This document shows, in pieces, positions 1,431 through 3,070 of a DNA stretch of 49,158 bases (positions within the stretch are counted from its first letter, which is position 1; every line of letters begins with the position of its first letter). Under the pieces are notes generated by a model. That model was not told the origin of the DNA and searched no databases. It was given only the letters and a program-made list of their open reading frames with translations. Position numbers and translations under genes: made by a program. Location: NCBI GenBank assembly GCA_016839605.1, contig JAEOTX010000096.1, forward strand, positions 1 through 49,158. The letters run 5' to 3'. This DNA comes from Candidatus Thorarchaeota archaeon. Lineage in GTDB: Archaea > Asgardarchaeota > Thorarchaeia > Thorarchaeales > Thorarchaeaceae.

Positions 1431-1506
1431 TCTTTTCTCTCATTTGTGGTATATCTACTTCGCTCATATATTCTACTATGCAAAATTCGGAGAAAAGAGA
1501 AAGGAT

Positions 1507-1606
1507 GGAAGGAGGTGCGACCAACGCACCCTTGCGGGGTGTGTCAGACCCGGCCCGTTTCGTTTACGGCCGTGCCTTCATCCGCCGCCGGTCACTAGCT
1601 CCTTCC
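1507..1606 (-). promoter_or_regulatory. Eukaryote/Asgard-type SECIS element of vhuU
   Basis: Minus strand AUGAA-GGCACGGCCGU-AAACGAA-ACGGGCCGGGUC-UGAC: kink-turn core, 11-nt helix II arm, AAA apical loop; closed by GUGACCGGCG/CGUUGGUCGC and GGAAGGAG/CUCCUUCC helices. Confidence 0.85.
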
Positions 1607-1742
1607 TGACTATCTCGCGACACTCCCCGTCATCGTCTTCCTCAACGACGACGAAATGAGCGCCGCATGATAGTCAGCAGTCGTAACACCGCACAACCAT
1701 CTCGATGAGGTTGAGCAGTCCTTCCGGTATTTCTTCCGTCAT
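1578..1742 (-). CDS. vhuU: Selenocysteine-containing [NiFeSe]-hydrogenase subunit VhuU (split C-terminus of the large subunit); Sec UGA at 1676-1674
   Basis: Translated by hand: MTEEIPEGLLNLIEMVVRCYDC-U-LSCGAHFVVVEEDDDGECREIVRKELVTGGG*. It matches the VhuU/L2 motif EMVxRxYDP(C/U)xSCxxH, directly follows vhuA (which lacks L2), and has a SECIS downstream. Confidence 0.93.
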
Positions 1743-1753
1743 GTTTTACACCA

Positions 1754-3070
1754 TTATCTTTTGACCATAGGCTCAGGAAGAGTTAGACTTTCATGAGCCT
1801 TGTCCTCAAATATTTGTTTGGCTGCGACCATGAGAGACTTCTCTATGCCCGCAATGTTGTTGTTAGTAGCAACGACTAGGTTTGCCTTGGTGAGCATCCC
1901 CTTGTCATCTGAGATGTAGTTGTGTAGCAGAATGCCTCTGGGGGCTTCCACGATGCCTACTCCATCTCCAGCTTTGGGTTCGACATCTGAGAGTTTCACA
2001 TCTGTACTGCAAATGTCTGGATCTTTGAGCAGTGTTGCACACCATTCAAACGCTTGTACCAACTCCACAATTCGTGCATAGTGGTAAGCGAATGTATGAT
2101 GAGAGGGTCGACCTACTAGCTCACGCATCTCCGTGAGAGCTGCATCAGCCAAAGGTGTAGCCATCTTCTCATTGACATTGCATCTTGCCAATGTGTTTGC
2201 TCTCCAGACACCCTCTGGATAGCCAGCAGGTTTGTAGTACATATGAGTAGCATAGCTATGCTTTGCTACATGTTCACCGTAGTACTTGGTGTAGTCCTTC
2301 GGTTCAAAGTCTGCAACTATTTTGCCATCTGGCTCTTGGACACGAACTGTGCCGTCGTAGATATCAAGCACACCTTCGTTTGAGAGTCCAATGTAATATG
2401 TCGGGACCACAGCGACTTTTGTGATAACATCCAGATAGTCTGTTACGACCTTCTTTGCCAAGTCCACTGTGTTTAGCGTCAGTTGCTGAATCTCCTCAAG
2501 TCGCCCTATGAAGAAATCGCGGTCTTCTTCCTTCAATGAAGTAAGCATACCTCCAGGAATTCCAGTAGTTGGATGTACAGCCTTCGCACCAATGACTCTG
2601 ATTAACTCCTGACCAAACTCCATCATCTTGATGGCCTGCACAGCCACGTCAGGTAGGTCTCTTAACACAGCTGCGACATTTCTATCAGCAGGATTTGCAA
2701 AAGGCCCGTAAACGAAGTCAGGTGCAGCTAGAGCGTAGAAGTGGATGGCGTGTGAGGAATACTGCTTCGCCTCAATCATCAGACGTCTCAGCTTGATCGC
2801 TGCAGGAGGTGGAGTCACATCCCAGGCTGCCTCAACAGCCTTGATGGATGCCAGATGATGAGGGATCGGACAGATACCACAAATCCTTGGAGCGATCCTT
2901 GGAGCTTCCTCCATGGGACGCCCTTCAAGGAATTTCTCAAAGAACCTTGTGCTATTCACATTGAACTGCACATCTTTGACCTTACCGTCCTTGCCCAATT
3001 TGATTGTCAATGAGCCATGACCCTCTAAGCGGGTCACAGGATCAACACGAATTACTTTCTCTTCACTCAT
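1754..3070 (-). CDS. vhuA: F420-non-reducing [NiFe(Se)] hydrogenase large subunit (group 3c), lacking the C-terminal L2 motif
   Basis: DPVTRLEGHG, RFFEKFLEGR, L1 RICGICPIPH, EAPRGILLH, ANLVVATNNN; no DPCxxC at the C-terminus. Confidence 0.93.
   Translation of the reverse strand: MSEEKVIRVDPVTRLEGHGSLTIKLGKDGKVKDVQFNVNSTRFFEKFLEGRPMEEAPRIAPRICGICPIPHHLASIKAVEAAWDVTPPPAAIKLRRLMIEAKQYSSHAIHFYALAAPDFVYGPFANPADRNVAAVLRDLPDVAVQAIKMMEFGQELIRVIGAKAVHPTTGIPGGMLTSLKEEDRDFFIGRLEEIQQLTLNTVDLAKKVVTDYLDVITKVAVVPTYYIGLSNEGVLDIYDGTVRVQEPDGKIVADFEPKDYTKYYGEHVAKHSYATHMYYKPAGYPEGVWRANTLARCNVNEKMATPLADAALTEMRELVGRPSHHTFAYHYARIVELVQAFEWCATLLKDPDICSTDVKLSDVEPKAGDGVGIVEAPRGILLHNYISDDKGMLTKANLVVATNNNIAGIEKSLMVAAKQIFEDKAHESLTLPEPMVKR

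Follow-up and report, generated by a model that had tools for sequence, protein, structure and literature searches.

SREs (Sec redefinition elements) have been described in a handful of selenoprotein mRNAs of eukaryotes. The one in SEPN1/SELENON is a stem-loop within the CDS, placed at a spacer of 6 nt from the Sec UGA (PMC3159437; PMC8704476), and the sequence of its loop matters. The type II read-through signature of alphaviruses and tobraviruses consists of UGA-CUA/CGG together with a 3′ stem (PMC3159437). For archaea, reviews up to 2026 give UTR SECIS elements as the only Sec signals. A Loki SECIS does not function in M. maripaludis. The Asgard vhuU gene, its SECIS and the overlap of the stop codon with the SECIS core were already published (PMC4989117; PMC11227280); an RNAz screen of Loki coding regions revealed no structure other than the SECIS (Mariotti 2016, PMC4989117), and the search of Huang 2024 began only 30 nt before the end of the gene (PMC11227280). 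The locus described here holds the same gene, with the AUGA core as stop codon and the GUAAA loop typical of Thorarchaeia, but differs from those reports by a hairpin within the CDS that appears in neither of them (PMC4989117, PMC11227280). No description of this archaeal hairpin was found in the searchable literature (many subscription papers lie outside it), and the 2026 review lists none.

The window, that is, the whole stretch of DNA analysed, comprises 49,158 nt of contig JAEOTX010000096.1 from a Candidatus Thorarchaeota archaeon (GCA_016839605.1), and carries the following features at and near the hairpin:

1754..3070, minus strand: vhuA, the large subunit without its C-terminal (last) Ni-binding motif, upstream of vhuU
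1578..1742, minus strand: vhuU, 54 codons; its Sec-containing peptide forms the C-terminal part of a split [NiFeSe] hydrogenase large subunit and has the motif RCYDC-U-LSC
1674..1676, minus strand: the UGA codon for Sec, in a UGA-CUA context
1668..1673, minus strand: the 6-nt spacer from the UGA to the core helix
1662..1667, minus strand: 5′ strand of the core helix (Cys and Gly/Ala codons), the only helix in the RNAalifold consensus, with 3 of its 6 pairs covarying
1627..1654, minus strand: apical stem with its 6-nt loop (1643-1638) and the site of a 12-nt insertion; the stem has 11 bp in this gene and 5 bp in the 84-nt class
1616..1621, minus strand: 3′ strand of the core helix, marked by covariation and conservation
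1606..1614, minus strand: 3′ strand of the basal helix, which pairs with 1677-1669 over 9 bp and covers the UGA; variable across the family
1500..1605, minus strand: eukaryote-like SECIS, its basal helix beginning within the CDS; matches the published Asgard SECIS (PMC4989117; PMC11227280)
625..713, minus strand: partial second copy of the vhuU 3′ end and SECIS, closing a nucleotidyltransferase cassette (context, outside the hairpin)

The vhuU peptide matches hydrogenase C-termini, including the 27-residue VhuU chain in PDB 9sfi, and an in-frame TGA is present in nearly all full-length matches of the vhuU family. The Sec position aligns with the Ni-ligand Cys and reverts to Cys only. The chain in 9sfi ends one residue past the His; cleavage of a C-terminal extension is standard in hydrogenases of this type and, by analogy, the VhuU tail beyond the His is probably cleaved off. 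tRNA-Sec, a Sec-containing SelD, SepSecS and an archaeal-type EFSec were all found in the genome, in which VhuU and SelD are the only selenoproteins found; the copies of HdrA and VhuD that were found are all Cys forms. In most Asgard vhuU the Sec motif (1680-1691 in this window) reads DC-U-xxC, the usual form being DP-C/U-xxC. The UGA stands in a UGA-CUAUC context in 65 of 72 Thorarchaeia vhuU genes, CUA representing only 12% of the Leu codons in their vhuA, and UGA-CUA is enriched outside Thorarchaeia too (23/43). Contigs with related vhuU occur in two metatranscriptome assemblies, with small shares; contigs cannot show transcription or RNA ends, so these were not used as evidence.

In the SECIS, the AUGA core (1581-1578) doubles as the stop codon (terminal UGA at 1580-1578), with a GA partner at 1545-1544, the GUAAA loop and a GCAA side hairpin at about 1541-1527. 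A SECIS of this AUGA...GA type follows the Sec genes of the comparison. The SECIS elements of vhuU and selD (selD 3′ end in L136, and L142-L171) are both three-way junctions with an extra side hairpin capped by GCAA or GCGA, and in both genes the stop codon is the AUGA/GUGA core.

The sequence-only reading of this DNA had proposed a 9-bp basal helix containing the UGA, a middle helix, and an apical helix, partly of G·U pairs, that closes a GAGGAA loop. All these pairings are present in the minus-strand sequence (9–10 bp in the middle helix, ~11–12 bp in the apical one), and the hairpin (minus strand, 1677-1606) does end where the SECIS basal helix begins, at 1605. Its MFE is −47.0 kcal/mol, whereas dinucleotide shuffles reach −21.0±2.9 (z −9.0, 0/200). 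Folding in a 246-nt context, the check suggested with that reading, returned the same hairpin (z −7.3). When the peptide was fixed and this gene was synonymously recoded, the recodings reached a mean of −21.0, against −48.7 for the real sequence (0/150). An Rfam search of the hairpin gave only chance miRNA-like matches below gathering scores. Two length classes can be distinguished, with 84 and 96 nt from the UGA to the stop, and the genes align without gaps within each class. The 12-nt insertion, which sets this gene apart from most relatives, adds six bp to the apical stem symmetrically and leaves the 6-nt loop, the spacer and the core register unchanged. The hairpin of this window, being of the long class, ranks with the strongest. 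On the tree of vhuU flanks the long class does not form a single clade; either it arose repeatedly or it spread by recombination.

Comparison within Thorarchaeia showed that 71 of the 72 distinct vhuU regions fold at z < −2 (median −4.2) and that 61 of 65 sequences lie below all 150 of their synonymous recodings, as against 0/22 of the Loki-type ones. The peptide alone, after recoding, gives about −17 kcal/mol, the real sequences being twice as stable. Identity at synonymous sites falls from 0.65 in the hairpin to 0.49 in the 5′ part of vhuU and 0.31 in vhuA. The RNAalifold consensus retains just the 6-bp core helix (1667-1662 with 1621-1616). All six core pairs are formed in 76 of 78 distinct Thorarchaeia Sec genes, with a pairing probability of at least 0.71 in all, and each of them is intact in 66–67 of 67 genes; the proposed ortholog comparison thus came out in favour of a conserved, covarying hairpin in this class. 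The four pairs over the UGA and the C before it hold in 41–62 of the 67 genes and are never compensated, and the basal helix is mostly Watson-Crick though variable (524/648 cells). The loop varies as well, with 20 different hexamers among the 59 genes of the 84-nt class. The UGA is indeed embedded in the hairpin base in this window, as had been claimed, but these basal pairs are the least conserved. A UGA-sequestering helix is a weak candidate for the selected unit, which is the core starting 6 nt past the UGA.

Three core pairs covary. At one of them the silent third base of Cys UGC/UGU tracks Arg CGC/His CAC on the opposite strand with no mismatching row, and the changes (6 on the VhuA tree, 7 on the vhuU-flank tree) always affect both sides together. 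Gly/Ala tracks a silent Gly third base through 5–6 changes, with one exception, on the two trees. If only well-supported branches are counted, 5/5 and ~3/3 independent contrasts agree, numbers that do not suffice for a formal p<0.05 on each pair. Each pair has one silent side, so co-evolution within the protein cannot account for the core covariation. G·U exceeds A·C in the core by 115:1 in the mRNA sense, which indicates that the structure acts on the mRNA-sense single strand, and the sense strand folds better than the antisense in 71/72 regions. Judged from the alignments, the core helix is under selection as a single-stranded structure in the mRNA sense. A parsimony co-change scan undercounted the pair 16:51 by tie-breaking, and its top hits were upstream synonymous sites without consistent pairing, co-changes that probably reflect paralog homogenisation; for both reasons the count was repeated on the vhuU-flank tree. 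The vhuU paralogs of one genome are identical over the hairpin (L019/L112 in G032, L020/L113 in G017, L011/L030 in G021), and the vhuA genes of these paralogs fall in different clades in G032 and G017, a sequence pattern that suggests gene conversion of vhuU. The earlier proposal that RNA shapes the VhuU tail could be kept for particular residues and codons (Gly/Ala, Arg/His) but not for the tail as a whole, since its Val/Asp-rich pattern is also found in hairpin-less lineages.

The distribution of the hairpin is narrow. None of 23 Lokiarchaeia-type vhuU regions folds at z < −2 (median −0.07), and in 42 other-Asgard Sec vhuU genes the core register is absent (core probability ≤0.35). Pan-Asgard conservation, the scale at which a check had been suggested, was thereby rejected: only Thorarchaeia vhuU carries the hairpin. 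The 28 Thorarchaeia selD genes show no hairpin after the UGA (median z +0.7, minimum −1.0), and a general Thorarchaeia Sec signal was rejected on this ground. Nearly all Asgard vhuU, whether they have the hairpin or not, count 84 nt from the UGA to the stop (L172-L195, L117-L135). Since other Asgard vhuU with this same distance and Thorarchaeia selD lack the hairpin, Sec insertion in general does not depend on it; the hairpin is specific to its lineage and is probably convergent with SREs. In two other Asgard genomes, L181 (G229) and L182 (G231) have unrelated strong hairpins in other registers a few nt past the Sec UGA (z −4.5 and −5.9, respectively), for which independent origins are possible. 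Many Loki-type vhuU (L117-L135) contain a short conserved GAGAUUUACUCUC (codons E-I-Y-S), with a small hairpin possible ~50 nt past the UGA.

Four vhuU genes with a Cys codon (TGT; L109, L225, L234 and L236), the VhuA of each falling within Thorarchaeia, represent 2–3 lineages, a single clade being rejected (p-AU 1e-9). In 4/4 the SECIS is absent and the core is broken (3–5 of 6 pairs, probability 0–0.48). L225 and L234 have Thorarchaeia-like tails. They show C·C or C·U at a covarying pair, and U·G in a position that is C-G or U-A in every Sec gene, changes that read as decayed remnants of the core; L225 can still fold, with the register shifted. The tails of L109 and L236 are divergent, which makes these two genes weaker witnesses, and they may never have had the hairpin. 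In this small set of Cys genes, in which SECIS and hairpin were lost together, the sequences indicate that the core is kept only while the codon is UGA. This decay in relatives reverted to Cys makes the hairpin probably a second signal that aids the reading of UGA as Sec. The Cys-type vhuU of L109 (G028:C63) and of L188 (G217:C227) has Phe in place of His after the CxxC-like motif.

With the UGA in the A site, the first downstream nucleotides lie in the mRNA channel of the ribosome. The basal helix would be unwound once the UGA enters this site, and the core and apical stem would then sit at the ribosomal mRNA entrance; the fold remaining downstream of the UGA has a median of −22.7 kcal/mol (−32 here), compared with −10.4 in the Loki-type genes. 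At the entrance the stem could pause the ribosome or disfavour the release factor, a delay that would let EFSec/Sec-tRNA, recruited by the SECIS from 84–96 nt away, decode the UGA. The UGA-CUA context would add leakiness, and cleavage of the tail past the His would give room for encoding RNA structure there. In the reading that we favour, at a probability of roughly 0.6, the hairpin enhances Sec insertion in the manner of an SRE, jointly with the eukaryote-type SECIS next to it; the sign of its effect on Sec insertion is something that comparative data cannot give. The claim of a second signal within the CDS stands as regards a conserved, covarying and Sec-tied element at the SRE position beside a eukaryote-type SECIS, and its effect on Sec insertion is what we infer. 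It seems quite unlikely that hairpin and abutting three-way-junction SECIS form one compact RNA domain (~170 nt) by which EFSec/Sec-tRNA is held at the mRNA entrance without SBP2; if true, this would be a local, bacteria-like delivery geometry made from eukaryote-type parts.

The Thorarchaeia core starts after a spacer of 6 nt, equal to that of human SEPN1 (PMC3159437). Like the SREs, it is placed within the CDS, shows conserved pairing with compensatory changes, is accessory to a separate 3′ SECIS and occurs in only a subset of selenoprotein genes. Unlike them, it is archaeal and belongs to another gene with no sign of common descent, its stem is interrupted, its loop and length vary, there is extra basal pairing over the UGA, and the SECIS is abutting, only 84–96 nt away. 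Whereas the loop matters in SELENON, here it is not conserved and the spacer largely is (CUAUC in 65/72). The type II read-through signals resemble it in the UGA-CUA context with a 3′ stem whose base is conserved and covarying and whose apex varies in length, but their spacer is 7–12 nt and not 6, and the residue in VhuU, as a Ni ligand, would have to be Sec supplied by dedicated machinery and not by a near-cognate tRNA.

Downstream of the hairpin, the vhuU 3′ end is repeated as partial copies after cargo genes (625-713 and 1-26 of the window, minus strand). About 50 partial copies in relatives have a constant 3′ end, are 5′-truncated and lie in shuffled cassette order, and no partial copy extends 5′ of the hairpin apex. 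L031 has its cassettes as A,B,C and L032 as B,A,C; further cassette loci are G000 C96:2973-3003, L059, L063, L085 and others. The cargo genes are diverse (nucleotidyltransferases, possible toxin-antitoxin pairs, hydrolases, SSB-like). No such cassettes were seen within ~850 nt of selD. From the arrangement of these copies the vhuU 3′ end is a cassette-accretion hotspot, similar to the additive islands at tRNA genes but different in that the SECIS is the anchor.

Two other roles fit the same comparative data as the SRE-like reading. The hairpin could be a selenium-responsive control element, which upon UGA stalling at low selenium throttles vhuU output or mRNA fate instead of stimulating Sec insertion. 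Loss of the hairpin in Cys genes is also predicted in this case, the basal helix that would hide the UGA is mostly Watson-Crick, and VhuU and SelD are the only selenoproteins found in the genome, the HdrA and VhuD copies being Cys forms. However, the invariant part lies at a stimulator-type spacer and not over the UGA, the loop and basal pairs drift, and no conserved alternative fold was seen, so that we hold a control element to be unlikely. Rather improbable, too, is a positioning scaffold, with the hairpin looping out the spacer so that the SECIS junction, beside the decoding ribosome, delivers EFSec locally without SBP2. Hairpin and SECIS helix abut, the apex absorbs length changes while the effective UGA-SECIS distance stays fixed, no SBP2 is known in Asgard archaea, and the selD SECIS, of the same kind, acts from ~1 kb without a hairpin. 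Against this scaffold, other Asgard vhuU work at the same 84-nt distance without the hairpin, no hairpin-SECIS contact was detected, and published reasoning favours a minimum and not a maximum UGA-SECIS distance.

A DNA-level recombination signal serving the cassette array downstream of vhuU would be in keeping with the truncation of the cargo-flanking copies in relatives at or beyond the hairpin apex, with nine partial copies that start at −54 to −67 from the stop, and with the ability of the hairpin to fold as single-stranded DNA. Yet, in contrast to a recombination att site, the 5′ ends of the partial copies range from −67 to +65, a spread of 130 nt that shows no fixed crossover; inspection of the cargo ORFs by eye turned up no integrase, the spacer to the UGA is fixed and the G·U strand bias is strong. 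Given these variable junctions and the decay of the core along with the loss of the UGA in the Cys genes, recombination is unlikely to maintain the core, and as an explanation of the hairpin it is very unlikely. The same low standing applies to a folding insulator, by which the CDS would be kept from mispairing with the SECIS, and to a by-product of the complementarity between Val (GUN) and Asp/Glu (GAN) codons. The stability retained by the recoded peptide alone would suit the latter, and synonymous recoding of the hairpin sometimes disturbed the SECIS in 2/14 genes, which suits an insulator; but the excess stability of the real sequences and their compensatory changes speak against this explanation, removing the hairpin leaves the SECIS pair probability in this gene at 0.94, and the explanation was largely refuted computationally. 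That the hairpin is a bacterial-type SECIS, contacted by the elongation factor itself, is extremely improbable. It does lie immediately 3′ of the UGA within the CDS, as in the fdhF type, and its loop in this genome begins with G. The analogy, which was part of the sequence-only reading, nevertheless had to be abandoned: the many loop hexamers of the 84-nt class hold no conserved G/U, EFSec is of the archaeal type (aSelB_III and RIBIOP_C) and lacks the winged-helix domain (no SelB-wing in a Pfam scan, E≤1), and the hairpin is absent from selD, so not in every selenoprotein gene, and has a 3′ SECIS already beside it.

Since the hairpin is confined to a single gene of a single class, its bearing on how eukaryotic recoding originated is limited. 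Its natural variants (compensatory pairs, two lengths and Cys revertants) are well suited for testing how a stem biases Sec insertion versus termination without SBP2. An SRE-like element in an Asgard lineage, if true, would mean that the ribosomes of archaea, too, respond to this cue close to the UGA, and that evolution reached the solution more than once.
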